18,346 bases of DNA from a virus (lineage: Duplodnaviria; Heunggongvirae; Uroviricota; Caudoviricetes), in IMG/VR virus record IMGVR_UViG_2531839178_000019, positions 1 through 18,346 of that record. One strand, 5' to 3'. This document shows positions 1 to 18,346 of the stretch, in pieces (the first letter of the stretch is position 1; every line of letters begins with the position of its first letter). The notes below the pieces were generated by a model. It was not told the DNA's origin. It worked only from the letters and a program-made list of their open reading frames with translations, and searched no databases. The translations under genes and the position numbers were made by a program.

Positions 1-378
1 TTACTCAACGTCAAACGCCCGAATTGAAGCCAAATCATCCAGACCGCTCAGCTCCTCTTTCATTTCACGCTGACGGCGATAAATCTCGTCATTGCGCTCA
101 ACCTGTGCCTGAGCCATTGCTGCCGCCAGTTCTTCCAGTTCCGGCATCGACAGTTTCACCTGCTGATTATCCGCATCACTCCACACCATATGTGTTTGTG
201 CCGCGACAGATTTTGCCAGCATGACCACCGGGGACAGGCGGCCCAGTGAGTCGGGGCCAGCATTCCAGATACGACCGTTCCATTCAAACGTGAACGGCTT
301 CGCCTCCTGTTCTGTGCGCCATGCTTCAATTTCCTGACGCCTGGCCTCTCTGGCCGCTTCCAGCATTTCTGGTGTCAC
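1..378 (-). CDS. Putative tail fiber assembly (chaperone)-like protein, C-terminal reading frame; the probable N-terminal segment lies upstream (about 503-563) in another frame
   Basis: ORF ends with TAA at 1-3. It sits directly downstream of the side tail fiber gene, where tfa lies in lambda. No Shine-Dalgarno precedes the in-frame GTG (376-378) or ATG (364-366), whereas the neighbouring frame has GAGGAA-N6-GTG at 561-563. The two frames meet at a 7-nt homopolymer at 496-502. Confidence 0.45.
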   Translation of the reverse strand: MTPEMLEAAREARRQEIEAWRTEQEAKPFTFEWNGRIWNAGPDSLGRLSPVVMLAKSVAAQTHMVWSDADNQQVKLSMPELEELAAAMAQAQVERNDEIYRRQREMKEELSGLDDLASIRAFDVE

Positions 379-573
379 AGTGAATGGGGCTATCTCACCC
401 CATTTGCCGCTTTGCAGTTCCTGCCAGATTTGCTGCCCCGTCGGAGCGACATCATCAGCGGTGGCTGTGTAGGGGACTGCCTGGTCCCTGTCGTCAAAAA
501 AACGTCACAGTCTACTGCGCCACTTTCGGTATAACGGGGATTAATGATTTTTTTAATTTCCACGGTGCATTCC

Positions 574-1989
574 TCACGATGTGCGAATAAAAAGCCCGGG
601 CATTGCGCCAGAGACATGTGCATCCGGCACCCCGGACAGGGCGCAATATGACCCCGGTAATGAATGCTCTGAACATCCCGTAATGAAAAATTGTGGGGAT
701 GCTATATACGTTCCGGTGGGAGTACTGGGCACTGAAATCCCCACCGGTCCCAGTCGTGAGCCTCTGTATGACTGCCCCCTGACAAGTCTGATGACTTTAT
801 CACCGTCAGCTTCTCCCTGGTACGCAGCAATAATCAGCCCGCCAATGTCAGGGTCTCCCCATCTGTTGCGGACAGAGCTCGCCACGATTCTGTAAATAAT
901 ATCTTCTGTGGTTATATTTATTTTCACCCAGCCAGTCAGTCTGGATATGGGCCAGTAGCAGTAGCGGGTGTGATAAATGGGGCCGTTAATGCCGTAAAAA
1001 GTAAGGGATTTGGCTCTGTACCTCGGTTCTGTTGTCTCAGGGCGTGCATCAGTCCACCGGATGCTGAGCACCCCTTCAAACCGTGTGTCGGGTATGATGA
1101 TGTCGTAGGGGCCAGCAACGGAATATTCACCTGGCAGCGCATTCCTTACCCAGGCCAGGAAATCACTCTTAGTGTCAAAACGGATAACATCTTCAGGCAG
1201 AAAAGCACGCCCAAAGCCGAATGCGCCGGGTATCGCCAGACGGCCTTTTGTCCGGTCGTAAATGTCGCTCTGTGCTTCCATCGTGGCCGCACTTTTCAGC
1301 CCCAGATTATCCCGGGACTTCTGTTGTGCCTTTTCGCCTGCTGCTGCGATTTCTGACAGATGGTTAGCCATTTTCAGAGTGCCGGTCAGCGCAGCATCAA
1401 TGTCATTTTTGGCCTGTTCTGCTGCGCGGGCATAACCTGCGGCATCCTGTGCGCTCTGTCCGGCTGCGGCTGCATTTGCTCCTGTGCTTGTCACATCTTC
1501 CGCAGTGGCCTTTCTGTCCTCAGCTGTGACGGTTGCATCCTGTCGGGCTTTCTCCGCAAAACGTTGTGCATCATCACGGGCCGTTGCGGCTGCCGCCACA
1601 TCCTGCGCCGTCTGCTGTGCGTTTCCGGCTGCAGCCCCGGCACTCTGCTGCGCCTGCGCCACCATTTCCTCAAAGCGCTTCATCACCTCCGGACGTAAAT
1701 CACCATCCTTTGGTGCATTCAGAAACGCGTTCAGTGTCCCCGGTGCATCAGTCGGTGCCACATCAATATCCCCGACACGGGTTGGCTGCCAGCCGTTACA
1801 GTGAAGCGCAACCTCGTAATACCCCGGCTCAGCCTCAATCACATAAGCACCGTTATTGTCCGTCACGCAAGTGGCAACAACGTGTGCCACAACGGTCGGA
1901 CTGGTTCTTCTGGCCCGCAGTTCAATCGCACAATTTACGACAGGTTTACCCGCCCCATCTTTCAGTACACCTGAAATCTTTACTGCCAT
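574..1989 (-). CDS. Side tail fiber protein (Stf-like): conserved N-terminal domain, Ala/Gln-rich coiled-coil stalk, divergent C-terminal globular domain
   Basis: 471-aa ORF starting at ATG 1987-1989 (MAVKISGVLKDG...), preceded by GGGGTGA. The first ~100 aa match the N-terminal domain recalled for lambdoid Stf/StfR proteins. The track ORF start at 2031 is an upstream in-frame extension without an RBS. Confidence 0.8.
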   Translation of the reverse strand: MAVKISGVLKDGAGKPVVNCAIELRARRTSPTVVAHVVATCVTDNNGAYVIEAEPGYYEVALHCNGWQPTRVGDIDVAPTDAPGTLNAFLNAPKDGDLRPEVMKRFEEMVAQAQQSAGAAAGNAQQTAQDVAAAATARDDAQRFAEKARQDATVTAEDRKATAEDVTSTGANAAAAGQSAQDAAGYARAAEQAKNDIDAALTGTLKMANHLSEIAAAGEKAQQKSRDNLGLKSAATMEAQSDIYDRTKGRLAIPGAFGFGRAFLPEDVIRFDTKSDFLAWVRNALPGEYSVAGPYDIIIPDTRFEGVLSIRWTDARPETTEPRYRAKSLTFYGINGPIYHTRYCYWPISRLTGWVKINITTEDIIYRIVASSVRNRWGDPDIGGLIIAAYQGEADGDKVIRLVRGQSYRGSRLGPVGISVPSTPTGTYIASPQFFITGCSEHSLPGSYCALSGVPDAHVSGAMPGLFIRTS

Positions 1990-2000
1990 ATTCACCCCAC

Positions 2001-2026
2001 AAAAAGCCCGCCTGAACCAGCGGGCT
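2001..2026 (-). terminator. Rho-independent terminator downstream of lom (minus-strand RNA GCCCGC-loop-GCGGGC followed by UUUUU)
   Basis: Inverted repeat gcccgcc (2006-2012) / gcgggc (2020-2025) with an A-run at 2001-2005 on the plus strand, giving a U-tract on the minus-strand transcript. Confidence 0.6.
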
Positions 2027-2052
2027 GTCATAACACTGTGTTACCTGGCTAA

Positions 2053-2652
2053 TCAGAACTTATAACCGACACCCACGATGAAACCGTCAGTGCGCCAGTC
2101 GCCACTGCCGGAACCTTCATAAGCAAGGTCAATGGCCACGGATTCGGTCGGGTTAAACTGCACGCCAGCCCCCCACGCCAGAGACGTGTTGCTGTGGCGG
2201 TTGTCATCACTCCCGGTCAGCACATCGTGCGTTTTCCCCTTGTTGTCAGTTACGCGGAGATAATCCCCGGAGAAGGTCGACACACGGCTGTAAGCCACGC
2301 CCGCCATCGCATACGCGCTGAACCATTCATTCACGCGCACAGACGGCCCCGCCATCACGCTGAACCAGCGGTTACGCACGGAATCCTCATGCCAGCGGGT
2401 ATCGCTGTAATGCGTTTTTTGCTCATCTTCAGCGTTGGCATAGCTGAATGACGTCACCAGCCCCAGCGTGTCCGTAAACTCATAACGGTATTTCACGTTA
2501 ATGCCCTTCAGGTCATCGCTGCCTGGCATATCAGTATGGGGCTGAAGATACCCGGCGCTCAGCGTGGACTGATGTTCAGACGCCCATGCAGGCGCACCGG
2601 ATACAGCCAGACAGATGGCTGCGGACAAAATGGCTGCACAAACTTTACGCAT
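2053..2652 (-). CDS. lom: Lom family outer membrane protein (Ail/PagC/Lom beta-barrel)
   Basis: 199-aa ORF with a signal peptide (MRKVCAAILSAAICLAVSGAPAWA) and a C-terminus (YEGSGSGDWRTDGFIVGVGYKF) matching lambda Lom as recalled. It lies immediately after J, as in lambda. RBS GAGAGG upstream of ATG 2650-2652. Confidence 0.92.
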   Translation of the reverse strand: MRKVCAAILSAAICLAVSGAPAWASEHQSTLSAGYLQPHTDMPGSDDLKGINVKYRYEFTDTLGLVTSFSYANAEDEQKTHYSDTRWHEDSVRNRWFSVMAGPSVRVNEWFSAYAMAGVAYSRVSTFSGDYLRVTDNKGKTHDVLTGSDDNRHSNTSLAWGAGVQFNPTESVAIDLAYEGSGSGDWRTDGFIVGVGYKF

Positions 2653-2674
2653 AATTACCTCTCGCTTTTCTGCA

Positions 2675-2700
2675 ATAAAAAAGGCACCATTTCTGGTGCC
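2675..2700 (-). terminator. Rho-independent terminator between J and lom (minus-strand RNA GGCACC-AGAAAU-GGUGCC followed by UUUUUUAUU)
   Basis: Perfect 6-bp inverted repeat ggcacc (2683-2688) / ggtgcc (2695-2700) with an A-rich run at 2675-2682 on the plus strand. Confidence 0.65.
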
Positions 2701-2719
2701 CGTATCCGGGTTATAAAAT

Positions 2720-5700
2720 TCAGCTAATCGTGATGCCTGCAGTGGCTTTCTTCATCACAACAACCAGCAAATCGCTGATACTTGCTGTGGGATACCAGCC
2801 ATTTACCAGCCATGCCGATACAGAAAACTCCAGCGTCATGTGACCGTGACCGGCAGGCATATCAATAACACCCGTATATATCAGCGTATTATCCAGGGTC
2901 GTTCGGTTATAAATTTCGGCACCGTTTTTCTTCACTATCAGGCGGCATGACGAATAAATATTGTTATTCTTCCGCTCATGTTTAGCACCGCGAAACGCCA
3001 CCGCGGGAATAACAATTTGCCGATCAAACGGCTGATCGTCATAAACCCTGACGGTAATGGTCCCTGATGGCCACCTCTCCGGTGCCCGGGAGTCCCGTGG
3101 GAAAGGTTTGCCCACTGTTTTAACGAGATCGCCTTCAATCTGGTTCGCGGACAATTTTCCCAGAACCCGACAGTTCTTATTAATCGTGACGTTGTTGAGC
3201 GTCCCGGAGTTCGCGTTCACGTTACCGCTGATATCGGCATTTTTCGCCGTCAGCCGTCCGCCAGGTGTCAGGGAAAATGCCGGAGGATTACCGCCGCTGG
3301 TAATGGTCGGAGCCGTCAGGCGTTTCAGGAACACGTCGTTCATGAATATCTGATCGCCCTGACCAACAAACATCGGCTTTGTGTTGCCATTCGCAGGATT
3401 AATCATCGCAATCCTGTCTGCCGCCAGCAGCACCTGACTCTGCATTCCTGCTGGCGTATTCTCAATACCGGCACCGATACCCGCAATATAAAGGCGTCCG
3501 TCCTTCATCTGTTGCAGCTTCACAGCCCACATGCTGTTCAGGTTATTATTTGTATCAACCTGAACTTTCTGTATCTGCTGGATTGCAGCACTCTGATTTT
3601 CCAGTTTTTTATTGACGGTTTGCGTGATTTCATTGCTGACATTCGTAATGGACGTCCTGATTTCAGTCAGGTCCGGCGCAAGCTGACCGTTATCAATCTG
3701 CGTCCACAACTCCTTGCCGAGATGCGTTTTATTGATCAACCCTTTATAAAAACTCAGATAACCTTCCGCATCATCGCTCGCCCGACCGACGGCCTCCACA
3801 AATGCCGATTTGCCAACGGTGTTCACACTGCGAACGTAAAAATAATAATCATGGCCCGGCCTGATATTGATACTGGCGGCTATCCAGTACAGCGCCGTGC
3901 CAAGATAGCGGGCGCTGGTTTCAACCTGCCTGATATCCGAAATCCGCTTTTCCGAAAACCAGAACTCAAACTGCACCGTCGGGTCATATACAGCCAGTTT
4001 CGGGACCGCCGTTATCTGAAAATACCCCGGTATCAGTTCAATAGTGACAGGCGCTGCCGGTGCCGCAATCCGGAACGATACCGACGCCGGATCGCCCTGC
4101 TGCCCCCGGGCATTTACCGCCCGGACTGTCAGACTGTAATTCCCCAGCGCCAGCTGCCTGAAGCGGTATGTGGTTTCCGTCGTCCTGGCTGTGCTGACCA
4201 GCCGCTCACTGCCGTCGTCCGCTGCCACGGTCAGGCGAAGCAGGAAGCTCACACCCTTCACCACCTTCGGCGTGTCCCATCGCGCCAGCACCTGATATTC
4301 CCCGCTGTCTGCGGTGACTTCGGCGGTCAGATGCTGCACCGCTGGCGGCGTGACACCATTCACCGTGCCGCGCCGGTCACCGTCAAAGTGTGCCCCGTTA
4401 TCCACGATGGCCTCTTTTTCCGGCACATGCTGCACGGCGGTGATGGCATACGTGCCGTCGTCGTTCTCACGGATACTCACGCAGCGGAACAGGCGCTGGC
4501 GCAGCGTCGGCAGCTTCAGCCCCCACACGCTGTATTCTGCAACGCCGTCAGGAACCCGGCTCACTTTCACCTTCACGCCGTCGGTGACGGACTGAACCTC
4601 CACGCTGACCGGATTGCCATTTCCGTCAACCAGGCTTATCAGCGTGGTACCGGAGGACGGCAGCGTGATTTCACGGTCGAGCGTCAGCGTCCGGGTCTGG
4701 CTGTTCACCGCCAGTACGCGACCACCAGTGCTGATACCGGCATAATCATCATCGCAGATTTCAATGACATCACCCGGTACATGGCGAAGCCCTTCTGCGC
4801 CCACGCTGAAGTCCACGGTCTGCGTTTCCAGCAGTTCCGTTTTAATCAGCCACAGCCCGGCGCGGTGCGCCTGTCCCCGGCTGGTACAGCCAAAGGCATC
4901 CATCTTCGTGACGTTACGACCGTAACGGACAATGGCCTGCGTGTCCTCCACAAGCTCTGTCGCCGTCTCATGACCGTTGTCCGGATCAATCCAGTTCACC
5001 TCAACGACATTATGGCGGTCCTTCAGGGCGCTGAAGCTGTAGCGGAACGGCGCGCCATCATCCGGCATCACCACATTACTGCGGTTATAGGTCCACACTT
5101 TATCCGACGGTCGGTCCTGCACGAACGTCAGCGTCTGCCCGTTCCATACCGGCATACAGCGCATCGCCGAGCAGAAATCACTGAGAACATCCCACGCCTT
5201 ACGCTGTGTGGTCAGGTAAGCGTTACAGGTGATGCGCGGCTCCGTGCCGCCAAATCCGTCCGGCACTGACTGGTCGCAGTACTGGCCGATGACATACAGC
5301 GCCCATTTGTCCACATCTGCCGCACCAAGACGTTTCCCCATGCCGTAGCGCGGATGAGTGAGCATGTCCCACAGACACCAGGCCATGTTGTTGCTGTATG
5401 CTGGCTTAAGCGTTCCGTCCCAGATACCGCTGTATTGCCGCGTCTGCGGGTTATAGTTCGACGGCACCTGCAGAATGCGCCCGCGAAGATGATAATTGCG
5501 ACTCACCTGCTGGTTACCGAACTGCTCTGAATCCACCTGCACGCCGACCAGCGCCGTGTTCGGGTAGCACTGTTTCACATCGATGATTTCGGTGTACGAC
5601 GACCAGAGCGTTTTGTTCTGCAGCTGGTCTGTGGTGCTGTCCGGTGTCATCCTGCGCATCCGGATATTAAACGGGCGCGGCGGCAGGTTACCCACCACCA

Positions 5701-6199
5701 CCGAGGCCAGATACTGCGAAGTGGTTTTGCCCTTAATGGTGATGTCTTTTTCCGTCACCCAGCCACCGTTACGCTGTATCTGAACCAGCAGGCGGACTTC
5801 CGACGGATTCCGGTCCCCCTTTGAGGTGGTTTCCACCAGTGCCTGCACACCGAAGGTCAGGCGCAGACGATCAATGTTTGCCGACGTGATGGTCCTGGTG
5901 ATCGGCGTGTCGTATTTCACTTCCGTACCCAGCACAGTCTCTGAGCCGGAAGATTCAAACCCCTCCGGCGGTGTCTGCTCCTGCTCGCCGGCGCGGAACA
6001 CCACCGTAACACCGGAAAAGTTTGTCTTCCCCTCGCTGTCCAGGACCGGCGTACCGTTCAGCAGCACGCTTTTTAATCCATCCACCGGACCGTCAACCGG
6101 CCCTTCGCTGATGGCATCAATCACACTCAGCAACTGCGTGGATTTCAGGTTGTCCTTCGCTTCGCGCGGGGTATGCCCCTTACTGCTGCCTTTACCCAT
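2720..6199 (-). CDS. J: Tail tip / host specificity protein J (central tail fiber)
   Basis: 1159-aa ORF. N-terminus [34 protein letters not shown]... and most of the first ~950 aa match lambda J as recalled; the C-terminal ~200 aa diverge. RBS GAGG upstream of ATG 6197-6199. Confidence 0.95.
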
Positions 6200-8245: not shown

Positions 8246-8574
8246 CAGTTCACCACCTGTTCAAAATCGGCCGTTACAGTCACCCATAACGCCCCCACGC
8301 TTGCCGACCATTTACGACAAACCACCCTGATCAGTTTCCAGTCATAAGGTGGCGTCCACTGAAATGCGCGGACGCCACCGTGCCGTTCCAGAAAGGCTTT
8401 TAAAGATGGGTGTTCACCTTTACGAACACGTATCGTCACGCTGTAAGTCGACAACTGGTTATTCAGTCCCGCCGCACGACGCTGTTCATAACCATCGCCC
8501 AGCTTCACTGTCACCACTTTCGGCTCTGATACCACATTCATATCCGGGCGCACTTTCCAGTGAAACGTCTCCAT
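8245..8574 (-). CDS. M: Minor tail protein M
   Basis: 109-aa ORF matching lambda M in length and sequence (…GDGY.QR…FEQVVN). Its ATG shares one base with the H stop codon (TAATG). Confidence 0.95.
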   Translation of the reverse strand: METFHWKVRPDMNVVSEPKVVTVKLGDGYEQRRAAGLNNQLSTYSVTIRVRKGEHPSLKAFLERHGGVRAFQWTPPYDWKLIRVVCRKWSASVGALWVTVTADFEQVVN

Positions 8575-11500
8575 TACCGGTATGCTCCACTTAACCGGCC
8601 ACCATCACGGGCCTGCTGTTGCATAAAGTCCGCGGCCGCTTTTTTCCCGAGGTCATAAACCACCTTCAGGGCAGCCGGACCTATCTGCCCGTTCGTGCCG
8701 TCGTTATTGATCTCAATGTTGTACTGCGGGGCAAACATCACCATGCCTGAACCACCAGTATCCGCCACAACCCCCAGCTTACCATCAGCACCGCGACGCA
8801 GTGGCAGAATGGCTTCAGGTCCCGCTTCCCCCATCACACCCGCGCCTTTTGCAAAAGCAAAAAACGTCGGACGGTTAACCACCGTGCCACTGTAGCGACT
8901 CAAATCAGCAGACTGGTAAACACCGCCATCAGCATTAGTCGTGAAGCCGAATAAAGAACCGACGCCCTTTACCGCCTGCATCATGGCCATCTGTGCCATA
9001 ATTCTGGCCATATCTGACAACAGGGAAGAGGTGAAGGATTTAAAATTCAGCTTACCGGTGGTACAGAATGTCGCCAGTGCATTACCGGCACTGCTGAATG
9101 CCACTGTAAACATCTGTTCTGCCGTTCCCGCCGCATTATCCGCATCCGCCGTAAAATTCTGAAACGCCCGCATGGCACCGTTTTTCCAGTCGCCCTGCGC
9201 CACTTCCAGTTCCTGCCAGTAGCGTTTGTTTTCATTCAGTTGTCGCTTCAGGCTCCCCTTCAGCACCTCCTCAGCCCTCCGGTAGTCCTCCGTCCCGTAA
9301 GTGCCTTTCTGGCGACTGTCATTCTCAAGCTGTTGCAACTGTTGCCGGTATTCCTGCCGGATGCGCAACTGTGCCTGGTAGCGCTGCCGCTGCTTATCCC
9401 CCATACCTGCAGTGGCAATATCCAGATTGTGCTGCTCACGCAGTGCACGTTCTTTGTCTGCCAGCTGGCTGGTCAGCTGAACCGTTTTTTTCTCAGGTCG
9501 TTAAGCGCTGTCTGTTTCTGCAGCTCCTGCTGTTTCACATCCAGCAGCGTCAGCGCCTGAATCAGCTCATTCTTACGGGCCAGCACACTCTTTTCATCTG
9601 CCGTCAGCTTTTTCCCGTCCAGGTCGCTGATGCGCTGCTGCAGGGCCAGAAGCTGTTTATGCGCTTCAGTCATCCTTTCAGTGGCAATGCCTGCTGACTG
9701 TCTGGCAGCAGCAATCTGCCCTTCCACCTGTGCCTGCTGCTGACTGTACTGCAGCAATAACCGGGTGGCCTCATCATTACGGGTTGCCCGTGTATTTTTC
9801 TTAATGGCTTTTTCGTAACGTTCATTTTCACGCTGTATCGCCGCATCCCTGACAGCCTGGTCGGCGTACTGCATGGCATTAATACGCGCAATTTCCCGCT
9901 GATGTCGTGCAGCTTCCGTTTCATTCATCCGGTTCAGCGCGGCATTTTCAGCATTCCGGCGTTTCTGTTGCTCCTGGTAATTCCGTTCTGCCTGCGCTTT
10001 TGCATCCTGCAAATCCTTCCGGCGTTTTTTCTCCTGAAGATCGTTAAGACGCTGCTGATCGTACTCCACCTGTGTGGAGGCGTTTGTCCACGGATATTTT
10101 TTCGCGCGCTGAATTTTTTCCTGTAACGCATCAATCTGCGCATCCAGCGAGTCTTCACGACCAATATTCATGGCCGCATCCCAGAACTGCTTCCACCAGT
10201 CAGACAAGGTTTGCAGCGTACTACCCAGCGCATTGAGATTATTATCAATATCAGATGTGCGTTTACCGGTTTCCTCTGCCAGCGCAGACATGGCGATCCG
10301 GGCCGCATCACTGGACCGCCCCTGCTCCCCAAGGACGCGTATCTGCTCAAGCTGAGTGGCAGTCAAAAAATGCAGCGCATTGTCCAGCGCCTTCGCGGCA
10401 TTTACAGGATCATCCTTCAGCCGCTTAAACTGATTTATGGTATCGCTGACCGACTGGCCAACCGATCGCTCCATCTGTGCGGCAGCTTTCGCCACCATAC
10501 CAATATCGTTTCCATGAAATGCCCCACTGCCCACCACCTGTGCCAGCGCACCGGCTGCCGCATGTTGCGTGATACCATTCCCGGATATGGCCCGGCTGAG
10601 TTTCCACAACTGCCCGACAGTGACACCGGCATAATGTCCCGTCAGCGCCAGCTGACGGTTAAATTCCTCGCCCTCCTTCCGGCCGTCATGCCAGGCTTTA
10701 CCCAGACCCAGGACCGCCGCGACAAGTCCGCCAATAACGCCGCCAGTCATCATGCCTTTCGGCGACATCAGTGCGCCTGTCCATCCGGCACGGTTAGCCA
10801 GCGTTATCCCGGATCCCCTCAGCGCACCAAAATTGCCGCGCGCCATCTGACTGATTAACACCCCCAGCTCCCGCCGGGCTGCCGCACTTTTCAGCCCCAG
10901 CGAATGTGTGGCTTTTCCTGCCCGCTCCATTTTGCGGATATACACTTCTGCAGCACTGCTTACCCCCAGCTGAGCCGCCCTGGCGCGAAGCAACTCAGAA
11001 GACGACAGATTCTGGCGGGTTGCCTGCTCTTTAAGCTGGCGGATAAACGCCGCTTTCTGCCGGGTGGCCTGTTCCTCTGCCTGCGTCAGGGCACGGGTTT
11101 TCGCCGTGATCTCCGAAATCAGCGCCAGATAATCCTGCTGACCAACCCCGCCACTGTTTCTGGCCTGTCGGATCTGCTGCTGAATACGCTGTAATTCCTG
11201 AAGCCCCGCACCGGCCTGTTTCACACTGTCAATCTGGCGATAAAAGGCGGCAGCCGCTTTATCCTGCGCCTCCGCCAGTGCCCTGGCCTGCGCCTGTTCC
11301 TCGCGCATTTTCTGATTCAGGGCATCCACGCGCAGACGGGTTTGTTCCACCTCACGGGCCATGCGTTCATGAGCCCGTGCATTCTTCTCCACCGTCTGCG
11401 CATGGGCTGATGCTGCTGTTGCAGCCGAAGAAGCCGCCTGCATTGTCTGCCGGGCCGCCTGAGTCTGACGCTCCATAAAACGCTGCATACGGGCAGAAGA

Positions 11501-11614
11501 CCGTTCTGCATCGCTGGCTGCACCATTCAGAAGGTTTTTGATACGGGGAATTTCATTTTTAAACTCTGCCGCATCAATCCCCAAATCAATGACCAGGTTG
11601 GCTATCTGGTCCAT
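8574..11614 (-). pseudogene. H: Tail tape measure protein H, reading frame interrupted at an A7 tract (coding strand; plus-strand T7 at 9485-9491)
   Basis: N-terminal ORF from ATG 11612-11614 (MDQIANLVIDLGIDAAEF..., RBS GGAGGTG) stops at 9473-9475. The C-terminal 276-aa ORF (8574-9404) ends ...NNDGTNGQIGPAALKVVYD..., matching the lambda H C-terminus as recalled, and its frame is open upstream back to 9500. The two frames meet exactly at the A7 run. Confidence 0.85.
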
Positions 11615-11915
11615 AACGCACACCTCCGGAAATACCTTCCCCAAGATGCATCAGTTCTTCGTCCGTTCGCTCCGGTATCCCGTTCTCTTCCGGTAAAAGG
11701 CTGAAATCAGCCACCGCAGCATCGCTGCTGCCGGACACCATTCTCACGATCAATGCCTTCAGCGAGGCAAACTGCGCATCCATCCACACATCACTGAAGC
11801 TCTGCATCCGGAAATAATCGCCCCACTCACCAAGCTCAGTGGCCGACATATCCGACAGCATCCGCCGCCAGTCTGCCCGCCGGAACTCCCGGGCAAGCCG
11901 CATGACAAACTGCAT
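11586..11915 (-). CDS. T: Tail assembly protein T, the -1 frame extension expressed as the G-T fusion
   Basis: 109-aa ORF in the -1 frame relative to G; its frame is open upstream to 11948 and overlaps the G 3' end. G-T-H gene order as in lambda. Confidence 0.8.
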   Translation of the reverse strand: MQFVMRLAREFRRADWRRMLSDMSATELGEWGDYFRMQSFSDVWMDAQFASLKALIVRMVSGSSDAAVADFSLLPEENGIPERTDEELMHLGEGISGGVRYGPDSQPGH

Positions 11916-12325: not shown

Positions 12326-12349
12326 CAAAAAGCCCCGGATAACCGGGGC
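12326..12349 (-). terminator. Rho-independent terminator/attenuator between V and G (minus-strand RNA GCCCCGG-UUAU-CCGGGGC followed by UUUUU)
   Basis: Perfect 7-bp GC-rich inverted repeat (12332-12338 / 12343-12349) with an A-run at 12327-12331 on the plus strand. Confidence 0.65.
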
Positions 12350-14691: not shown

Positions 14692-14710
14692 AAAAAAAGC
14701 CCTTACGGGC
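14692..14710 (-). terminator. Hairpin (GCCC-GUAA-GGGC) followed by U7 downstream of the capsid gene; a second 6-bp hairpin (14664-14680) follows without a U-tract
   Basis: Short GC stem with a GNRA-type loop at 14699-14710 and an A7 run at 14692-14698 on the plus strand; lies between the capsid stop (14735) and the next start (14648). Confidence 0.45.
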
Positions 14711-14734
14711 CATCAGAGTTGTTGTCTGCGACGT

Positions 14735-16535: not shown

Positions 16536-16862
16536 TGAGGTAGCCTGAGTTTAACGGACACTCCTTCCTGAAATAGAATGGCATCAGAAGGAGCTAATAA
16601 TGAGCAGAAAAACCCAACGTTACTCTAAAGAGTTCAAAGCCGAAGCTGTCAGAACGGTTCTTGAAAATCAACTTTCGATCAGTGAAGGCGCTTCCCGATT
16701 ATCCCTTCCTGAAGGCACTTTAGGACAATGGGTTGCCGCCGCCAGAAAAGGGCTCGGTACTCCTGGTTCCCGCACGGTGGCTGAACTGGAATCTGAAATT
16801 CTGCAACTGCGTAAGGCGTTAAATGAAGCTCGCCTTGAGCGAGATATATTAAAAAAAGCAAC
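16536..16862 (+). mobile_element. IS600-like (IS3 family) element, left ~327 bp only, interrupted by IS30
   Basis: Begins TGAGGTAGCCTGAG... about 64 bp before the orfA ATG (16600-16602), a layout typical of IS3-family left ends. The orfA product MSRKTQRYSKEFKAEAVRTVLENQLSISEGASRLSLPEGTLGQWV... matches IS600 OrfA as recalled. The left boundary is approximate. Confidence 0.7.
16600..16862 (+). pseudogene. IS600 orfA, 5' fragment (first ~88 codons), truncated by the IS30 insertion
   Basis: The helix-turn-helix OrfA sequence stops making sense after ...LERDILKKAT at the IS30 terminus (16863); the track ORF to 16950 reads through into the IS30 inverted repeat. Confidence 0.8.
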
Positions 16863-18083
16863 TGTAGATTCAATCTGTCAATGCAACACCCCTTTCAATT
16901 ATCTCTTTCGGTGTTTTGAACTTCAGTGTCTTTCTCGGTCTGTTGTTTAGCTGAGCAGCAACCAGATCTAGTTCATGTTGAGTATATTGGGCAAGACATG
17001 TCTTTTTAGGAAAGTACTGCCGAATTAGCCCATTTGTGTTCTCATTTGTTCCCCGCTGCCAAGGACTCTGAGGATCGCAGAAGTAAACTTTAACGCCGGT
17101 GCTGACAGTAAATTCTAGATGTCTGGCCAGTTCCATTCCTCTGTCCCATGTCAGCGATTTTCTGAGTTCTGACGGTAAACTCAGGAATTTGTCGGTAAGA
17201 GCCTGATTTACTGAGACAGTAATCTTTGCCCCTGAGTCTAAGGATGATCGTATAACGTGATTTTCGGTCTACAAGTGTGGCTATATGAGAGTTTTTGTAC
17301 CTGAGACTAAATCGCCCTCCCAATGCCCCAGAGAGCGTCTGTTATCGATATTTCGGGAACGTTCGTGAATTGGTGTTCCGTTCACTATGTTAATCGTACC
17401 TCTTTCGCCTTTGCGGGTATGACGCCTGCCATGGCGAAGGCTATGCGACCGTCGCAGATGCTGTATATTCAGGTGGTGTAGCGCTTCACGGCTACGAAAG
17501 TACAGCGTTTTATAAATTGTCTCAGGTGATATTCGCAGCGTTTTTTGACGTGGTTTTGTTCGCCTTAACCATCCTGATATTTGCTCTGGAGACCATTTCA
17601 TCTCCAGCTTTTCCAGAACAAGCTTTCGCAATGGTAAATTTTGATCCAGTAAGCACGGTTTTGGCCTTTTCGCCATTCTGTTGGCTCGGTTATTAGCATC
17701 AACAGCTTTGTAATAGCGTCTGCCCCGATTACGCTGAACTTCACGTGAGATCGTCGAAGGACTGCGATTCAGCGCAGTAGCTATCGCACGAATGCTCATT
17801 TTGGCTGACAAACCAGCTCGTATCTCCTCGCGCTCAGACAGTGTCAGGTGAGCTACAGCCCGCTTACGCTCATGGGGTTTTATGCCGCCAGTATCCCTTA
17901 ACATAGTGAAGATCGTTCCGGGTTTTGAACCCAGGATATTCGCTATTTCACTGAAGCCTGTTCCGTTCTTCCATAGTTCAAAAACAGAGGCTTTTTCCTC
18001 TGCTGTAAATGTTCGTCTCATTCAAAAAACCTCCGCGACCCCATGTTTTCACATAACTGTTGCGTTGACCAATTGAATCTACA
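16863..18083 (-). mobile_element. IS30, complete length (1221 bp) with imperfect ~25-bp terminal inverted repeats
   Basis: Termini TGTAGATTCAATCTGTCAATGCAAC (16863-16887) and reverse complement of 18059-18083, TGTAGATTCAATTGGTCAACGCAAC. Encodes an IS30-family DDE transposase on the minus strand. Confidence 0.9.
16870..18021 (-). pseudogene. insI: IS30 transposase, split into three ORFs by two compensating 1-bp indels
   Basis: ORFs 17281-18021 (MRRTFTAEEKASVFELWKNGTGF..., HTH), 17090-17323 (...NSHIATLVDRKSRYTIILRLRGKD...) and 16870-17136 (MELARHLEF...DPQSPWQRGTNENTNGLIRQYFPK...) together read as one IS30 transposase as recalled. Frame changes occur near the T5 run at 17292-17296 and near 17220. 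Confidence 0.8.
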
Positions 18084-18346
18084 GTTGCTTTTTTAATATA
18101 TCTCGCTCAAGGCGAGCTTCATTTAACGCCTTACGCAGTTGCAGAATTTCAGATTCCAGTTCAGCCACCGTGCGGGAGCCAGGGGTACCGAGCCCTTTTT
18201 CTGGCGGCGGTAACCCATTGTCCTAAAGTGCCTTCAGGAAGGGATAATCGGGAAGCGCCTTCACTGATCGAAAGTTGATTTTCAAGAACCGTTCTGACAG
18301 CTTCGGCTTTGAACTCTTTAGAGTAACGTTGGGTTTTTCTGCTCAT
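18084..18346 (-). mobile_element. Second IS600-like fragment (orfA 5' part) in inverted orientation, continuing beyond the window; orfA frameshifted
   Basis: Reverse complement of 18084-18346 is identical to 16600-16862 except for 3 substitutions and one extra A (A5 versus A4), which shifts the orfA frame after ...WVTAARK. The orfA ATG is at 18344-18346. Confidence 0.8.

Follow-up and report, generated by a model that had tools for sequence, protein, structure and literature searches.

An apparent lom-plus-terminator cassette between the tail tip and side tail fibre genes of a lambda-like prophage

The lom gene of phage lambda is a textbook moron, and Ail, another member of the Ail/Lom family, is known for adhesion and serum-resistance phenotypes. 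In lambdoid phages, Q-modified polymerase reads through terminators in the late operon. Lambda lom has been called a lysogen-expressed moron (PMC7067206, PMC3594210), and its expression in lysogens has been reported more than once (PMC1151598; PMC7067206 and references therein), whilst the evidence for transcription from the repressed prophage, which concerns lambda lom only, is mixed: it was detected in PMC1151598 and went undetected in the lysogen arrays of PMC2147009, which adds that little is known about the lom promoter. Strong expression in the lytic cycle is stated in PMC9836094, citing Liu 2013, and CRISPRi showed the gene to be dispensable for plaque formation (PMC10695390). An adhesion/serum-resistance phenotype of lambda Lom was reported by Vica Pacheco 1997, as cited in PMC3594210. 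In the literature that we searched, we found no mapped lom transcription start or terminator. The arrangement of the gene is nonetheless on record: in phage 434 (OL657226.1, 18918-19652), J, a terminator, an RBS, an 'Ail/PagC/OmpX porin' of 199 aa, a further terminator, an RBS and the side tail fibre gene are all annotated.

Here, we consider the same arrangement in a prophage sequence. The window, by which we mean the whole stretch of DNA analysed (18,346 nt), covers the late head-tail region of a lambda-like prophage, with every gene of that region on the minus strand, and is 98.7% identical across 14 kb to the prophage beside yehK/btsSR in E. coli CFSAN029787. The J gene, encoding the tail tip attachment and host specificity protein (2720..6199, minus strand; 1159 aa; TGA stop at 2722..2720), is intact: its coding sequence holds six J-specific Pfam domains, and its length equals that of the PGAP-annotated gpJ of the CFSAN029787 prophage. 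It is followed by lom (2053..2652, minus strand) and by an stf-like side tail fibre gene with a phage_tail_N domain (574..1989, minus strand; ATG at 1989..1987), which spans 574..2000 (minus strand) when its RBS, GGGGTGA, is included, and whose start matches both lambda orf-401 and the PGAP calls. The gaps on either side of lom measure 67 and 63 nt. Phage 434 is very close to the window here, with a Lom protein that is 90% identical and with both terminators and the lom leader aligning base for base; it differs in the 3′ end of J and in a few bases, and 434 is viable whereas the window prophage carries an IS insertion and frameshifts. The order J, terminator, lom, terminator, stf is real, ordinary and, being annotated in phage 434, already known. 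Indeed, the region is present in 4753 of 5426 complete E. coli genomes (~88%), with a median of 2 copies. Two further observations concern the CFSAN029787 prophage. Compared with it, the stf-like gene of the window has a 4-nt insertion and a 1-nt deletion at 1100..1110, a net gain of 3 nt that keeps the frame. Just past the position of the window's left end, downstream of the tail-fibre genes, that prophage (our L037, 20478..23104) has a frameshifted ipaH-type T3SS effector gene and a SAM-dependent methyltransferase gene, which are further cargo at the prophage end.

The window's lom is intact and full length, and encodes a 199-aa precursor of an Ail/Lom family outer-membrane β-barrel protein. 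Its membership of the Ail/Lom/OmpX family is supported by an end-to-end match to PF06316 Ail_Lom (E=1.9e-128; 426 bits against a cut-off of 23; residues 1-199 of a 199-position profile), by homology to solved members in the PDB (lambda Lom, 9wso_C, 3e-51; OmpX, 1orm, 3e-19; Ail, 3qra, 1e-18) and, on inspection of the translation by eye, by a Sec-type signal peptide, MRKVCAAILSAAICLAVSGAPAWA, followed by SE..., together with a C-terminal aromatic β-signal, ...VGVGYKF. The first of these PDB entries is a multi-chain one in which lambda 'Outer membrane protein lom' (206 aa) was solved as chain C; it may bear on the partners or function of Lom, and a paper describing 9wso was not found in the literature searched. 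A Shine-Dalgarno sequence, GAGAGG, lies at 2663..2658 (minus strand), 5 nt ahead of the ATG at 2652, and an RBS is annotated at the same place in the phage 434 record.

The first-pass annotation of this DNA had described a hairpin with a U-tract after J (2675-2700) and another after lom (2001-2026), with lom and its own RBS between them. This description is borne out in full: the reading frame and RBS are as above, and both elements are present on the sense strand at positions that were right to within 1-2 nt. The first, T1 (2674..2701, minus strand), has the stem GGGCACCA/UGGUGCCU closed by a GAAA loop and then UUUUUUAUU; in the DNA, its 8-bp stem-loop runs from 2701 to 2682 (minus strand), 18 nt past the J stop, and is followed by TTTTTTATT. 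Its folding energy of -14.2 kcal/mol (z -3.9) was equalled by 0/200 shuffles. The second, T2 (2001..2026, minus strand), has the stem AGCCCGCU/GGCGGGCU, the loop GGUUCA and then UUUUU; the stem-loop at 2026..2005 (minus strand; 8 bp, of which 6 are G-C, with a 6-nt loop) starts 26 nt past the lom stop, is followed by TTTTTG, and folds with -15.6 kcal/mol (z -2.3). Each is thus a G+C-rich hairpin directly before a U-tract, on the sense strand and after a stop codon; when the plus strand is read, neither hairpin is followed by a T-run. Terminators are annotated at the position of T1 in the records of phages 434 and 21, and at that of T2 in the record of phage 434. No Rfam family was found at gathering thresholds in the window, lambda or two related loci.

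Could these hairpins be chance inverted repeats with no function at all? A loose terminator scan leaves some room for this, since it returned 25 sites where 17.6 ± 5.0 are expected, and the class is not enriched. Against it, a stringent scan of both strands of the 18,346-nt window (at least 8 pairs, at least 5 of them G-C) returned T1 and T2 as the sole matches on either strand, each in sense orientation and in one of the two short gaps next to lom; in 100 dinucleotide shuffles, stringent matches averaged 0.17 per strand, and only 2% of the shuffles held two or more. Moreover, we gathered ~167 lom loci, drawn from phage records, genomes and viral contigs, and more than 150 loci conserve both elements. 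The T1 helix occurs there in 15 distinct variants with 94% of cells paired, and in three of its pairs both partners are changed (A-U/G-C in 7/7 variants, C-G/U-A in 10/4, and A-U/U-A in 11/2), a covariation score reached by 0/500 shuffles; sliding the pairing by 1-3 columns lowers the paired fraction to 38-57%. T2 is conserved in sequence: 95.5% of its cells are paired over 14 variants, with one-sided G-U changes only and no double changes, and hence no covariation signal. A hairpin with a T-run sits at the T1 position in nearly all of 47 distinct J-lom junction sequences, the exceptions being L039, in which the 5′ arm is replaced, and L159, in which the T-run is shortened, and lambda has a different hairpin with a U-tract at this same position. 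The covariation of T1 and the stringent scan effectively refute the chance reading, to which we give next to no credence. A separate variant of T1 was seen in three loci (L050, L053 and L081), where the stem is the same, and the loop and closing pair are inverted (CCAGAAATGG to CCATTTCTGG); it looks like a hairpin-loop inversion or template-switch event.

The punctuation extends beyond lom. A hairpin with a T-run follows the tail-tube (V-like) gene at 12332..12349 (minus strand; GCCCCGGTTATCCGGGGC TTTTTG), and another follows the protease-capsid fusion gene at 14698..14711 (minus strand; GGCCCGTAAGGGC TTTTTTTG); both are weaker than T1 and T2, and each lies just ahead of the RBS of the next gene. 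Given these similar hairpins, terminator punctuation is a general feature of the late operon and not specific to morons. It could be argued that all four hairpins, each placed right before the next RBS and two of them behind abundant capsid and tail-tube genes, serve mainly as 3′-end mRNA stabilisers or processing boundaries that set the amounts of J, Lom and Stf made from a long late transcript. Two features of the variants fit termination better, as a stabiliser has no need of a U-tract. First, the U-tracts are invariant or nearly so: in T1, columns T23-T27 are invariant and T28 is conserved in at least 90%, and a T-run is present in all T2 variants. Second, at least 15 loci have a different lom-stf spacer, in which an unrelated hairpin replaces T2 and again bears a T7 run directly before the stf RBS. 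We regard the stabiliser role as very improbable as the main one, although it would be compatible with the transcription model that we put forward below.

Which of the two terminators is lom's own? When a synthetic J-end/T2-stf junction was searched against complete E. coli genomes, ~119 of them proved to have a short junction, and lom-less J-T1-stf arrangements are found in phage 21 (OL657228.1), which is viable, in prophages of E. coli KOr019 and BL21, and in several other phages. Phage 21, KOr019 and BL21 share with the window the J 3′ end, the T1 hairpin (GGGCGCCAGAAATGGCGCC + TTTTTTATT) and the stf RBS and start, but are without lom, its leader and T2, such that T1 directly abuts the stf RBS. 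With a slash marking the boundaries, the lom-less sequence reads ...GGGCGCCAGAAATGGCGCC TTTTTTATT/TGTGGAGTGAATATG(stf), and the window reads ...GGTGCC TTTTTTATT/GCAGAAAAGCGAGAGGTAATTATG(lom)...GGCGGGC TTTTT/GTGGGGTGAATATG(stf). As T1 follows J with or without lom, it belongs to J, and only T2 belongs to the lom unit: T1 is the resident terminator of the J 3′ end, outside the lom insert, and T2 the cassette's own terminator, at the right end of the insert. Judged from these alignments, the lom unit is a cassette of ~673 nt (~2673..2001), made up of a 21-nt leader with the Shine-Dalgarno sequence (GCAGAAAAGCGAGAGGTAATT; 2653..2673, minus strand) that forms the left end, the ORF, a 26-nt spacer between the lom stop and T2 (2027..2052, minus strand), and T2 itself. 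It is placed exactly between the T1 U-tract and the stf RBS, and the order of terminator, RBS and next gene is therefore unchanged by its presence. Whether lom was inserted or deleted is undecidable because the junction has just 1-3 nt of T microhomology. HK97 and HK022 were also considered as lom-less comparators and set aside, their J-downstream regions being non-homologous at the junction and offering no clean empty site.

The boundaries of the cassette are better conserved than its contents. Lambda lom (NC_001416, 18965..19585) shares the J-lom-stf order, a homologous leader (..AAAACAGTGAGAGGTGAACG) and a lom-stf spacer that, with T2, is 96% identical, yet lambda Lom is only 47% identical to the window's Lom, and the lambda hairpin at the T1 position is a different and weaker one (6 bp, -9.7 kcal/mol, UUUUAUU). 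With a third lom class included, the three allele classes are only 47-61% identical in protein and all have a homologous leader. An island of 88-95% identity, made up of the final 40 nt of lom plus the T2-bearing spacer, is common to the window, lambda and L160-type classes, and in the lambda comparison its identity runs on into the first bases of stf; L166-type loci, within the third class, carry an alternative lom-stf spacer instead. Allele classes within conserved boundaries would fit cassette exchange at those boundaries. The association between lom class and J-end class was examined as a test of receptor-linked function: lom classes and J C-terminal classes co-occur, yet at least 9 J-end clusters are seen alongside lom class 0, and linkage and sampling confound the comparison.

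Two side observations concern the lom-stf spacer. Between the lom stop and T2 there is a perfect 13-nt palindrome, TAACACAGTGTTA, at 2043..2031 (minus strand), which is the same in lambda and most lom loci; it could be a candidate protein-binding site or chance, two options that are indistinguishable here since the whole island is conserved. In four loci, L044 (1800..1950), L166 (1824..1960), L164 and L165, a segment of ~100 nt that the window is without lies between lom and stf. It bears a perfect extended -10 (TGGTATAAT) in L166 and L164 and ends in a strong terminator of its own, and its ~90-nt product has a predicted fold of -37 kcal/mol (z -4.2) and belongs to no Rfam family; this segment is a candidate small-RNA unit.

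How, then, would lom be transcribed? A consensus scan, which misses weak, activator-dependent and alternative-sigma promoters, covered the lom strand for 450 nt ahead of the gene and found no sigma-70-like site of at least 9/12; the highest-scoring candidate (8/12, at 2984..2957) comes before T1. A relaxed scan (at least 7/12, extended -10 included) gave nothing convincing on the lom strand of the window or lambda, no PhoP-box-like direct repeat was seen by eye, and the curated entries for phages 434 and 21 show terminators and RBSs at this place but no promoter. The leader of lambda has a -10-like hexamer, TATTAT, 20 nt before the lom ATG, whereas that of the window is without one. The inserted DNA 5′ of the lom ATG, counted from the T1 U-tract, is 21 nt only, and the stf ATG follows the T2 U-run by 11 nt; these gaps are too short to hold a promoter for either gene.

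We consider it probable that J, lom and stf form one late transcription unit punctuated by sense-strand intrinsic terminators, in which lom is a promoterless cassette. As stf is a late structural gene that starts only 11 nt past T2, it must be reached by read-through of T1 and T2, and lambda biology, together with the fact that neither lom nor stf has space for a promoter ahead of it, makes Q the most likely agent. During lytic growth, Q-modified RNA polymerase would read through both terminators, and J, Lom and Stf would be produced from one transcript. In the uninduced prophage, T1 would stop ordinary polymerase arriving from the tail genes, and T2 would keep any transcription within lom from reaching stf; any lysogenic expression of lom would then have to rely on leak-through at T1 or on a weak promoter of non-consensus type that straddles T1 and the end of J. 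Such a straddling promoter could equally count against a single transcription unit, and the reported expression of lambda lom in lysogens implies some promoter or leak in lambda, which likewise counts against a promoterless cassette.

The opposing reading, close to that of the first-pass annotation, is of a lysogenic-conversion moron that is self-contained throughout: it would have its own promoter, be transcribed independently in the repressed prophage, end at T2 and be insulated upstream by T1. Some of this stands: phage 21 and others are without the lom DNA, the gene comes with an RBS and a terminator of its own, and lambda lom is cited as a moron and as lysogen-expressed (PMC7067206, PMC3594210, PMC1151598). 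Moreover, the unrelated podovirus 933W has a lom homologue behind a 90-nt AT-rich gap and before a terminator, which shows that the gene moves between contexts. What is not supported is the autonomy. T1 belongs to J, and a predicted strong terminator is placed directly upstream of an insert that provides just 21 nt before the ATG; the consensus scan of the lom strand found no sigma-70-like site of at least 9/12 in that leader or elsewhere in the 450 nt upstream, the phage 434 record annotates no promoter, and lom went undetected in the lysogen arrays of PMC2147009. Nor does the composition of lom set it apart from its neighbours, with a GC of 0.565 against 0.561 for J and 0.547 for stf, and a GC3 of 0.645 against 0.666 and 0.515. 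We find a self-contained moron unlikely at this locus. More tentatively, we could speculate that the paradigm moron lom is itself a promoterless cassette, served by the Q-antiterminated late operon or by leakage at T1, and that Lom is mainly a late lytic protein of the outer membrane that, like cor, would serve the phage, for instance at the receptor or the envelope, with lysogenic conversion as a by-product; this wider proposal is possible but, in our view, doubtful.

A related argument, also raised on first inspection, was that an intact lom in a seemingly defective prophage fits selection on the host. Intact prophages are homologous to the window as far as ~16537, the point at which IS3/IS600-type transposase ORFs begin: the region ~16538..18346 contains an IS3/IS600-type transposase ORF at 16600..16950 (plus strand) and an HTH_38-type one at 17281..18021 (minus strand). 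The ClpP-capsid fusion gene is 5′-truncated, being without the first ~75 ClpP profile positions, and the IS600-like insertion that truncates this protease-capsid gene near 16540 is solid proof that something is defective here; that the prophage as a whole is defective is plausible. In the same region, CTCGCTCAAGGCGAG+CTTCATTTAA occurs in inverted orientation at 16843..16829 (minus strand) and 18102..18116 (plus strand), copies that are probably IS ends. Relative to CFSAN029787, the tape-measure gene has a 1-bp deletion at ~9492, in an A-run, that splits it into ORFs 9473..11644 and 8574..9404, and a DUF4376 tail-fibre-assembly-like gene has a 1-bp deletion at ~503, in a T7 run, leaving ORFs 390..623 and 1..378. 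Both frameshifts may be real pseudogenisation or, because the deletions sit in homopolymer runs, sequencing errors.

Whilst lom is indeed intact, the conclusion is weakened from several sides. J and stf are also intact, so an intact lom is not distinctive. In E. coli SY033 (L195, 818..1125), J and stf are both truncated, and what is left of lom between them is frameshifted and has an internal deletion; lom thus does decay in some defective prophages. Decayed copies were also seen in two Shigella flexneri loci (L010 and L031), which have multiple stops across J, lom and stf and may be error-prone assemblies, and which were not usable as comparators. Across 83 alleles, the median dN/dS of lom is 0.19, which points to purifying selection, though dN/dS does not separate benefit to the host from benefit to the phage.

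The added value of our comparison is modest: the empty sites define a promoterless lom-plus-T2 cassette and show which terminator is lom's. They also sharpen an old question: how is lom transcribed in the lysogen, if at all? A gene between two terminators, in a late operon that is antiterminated by Q, is not proof of an autonomous transcription unit. The description of this layout as the usual architecture of a moron can be weighed against the morons defined in HK97 and HK022 (Juhala et al. 2000, as reviewed in PMC3594210). Like HK97 gp15 and gp22/23 and HK022 cor, the last of which fills the same slot after J, the window's lom is additional DNA set between conserved late genes, has a terminator of its own downstream, and encodes a cell-envelope protein of a kind that plaque formation does not require. 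The gene is missing from the collinear phage 21, KOr019 and BL21, and its factor-independent terminator, T2 (2026..2001), lies inside the insert. Unlike those morons, it has only 21 nt inserted before the ORF, no promoter of its own was found in the insert by the consensus scan (a weak one straddling the junction is possible), and its GC and GC3 do not deviate from those of J and stf. A more classical moron layout is seen in Stx phage 933W, whose lom/ail homologue (AF125520, 44693..45427) belongs to the same Ail/Lom family and has an intrinsic terminator ~24 nt later (ACCCGCTGTGATGGCGGGT + TTTTTTATT). That gene differs from the window's in its identity of ~41%, its podovirus gene context and its lack of an upstream terminator, and the 90-nt AT-rich gap before it has the room for a promoter that the 21-nt leader of the window's lom does not.
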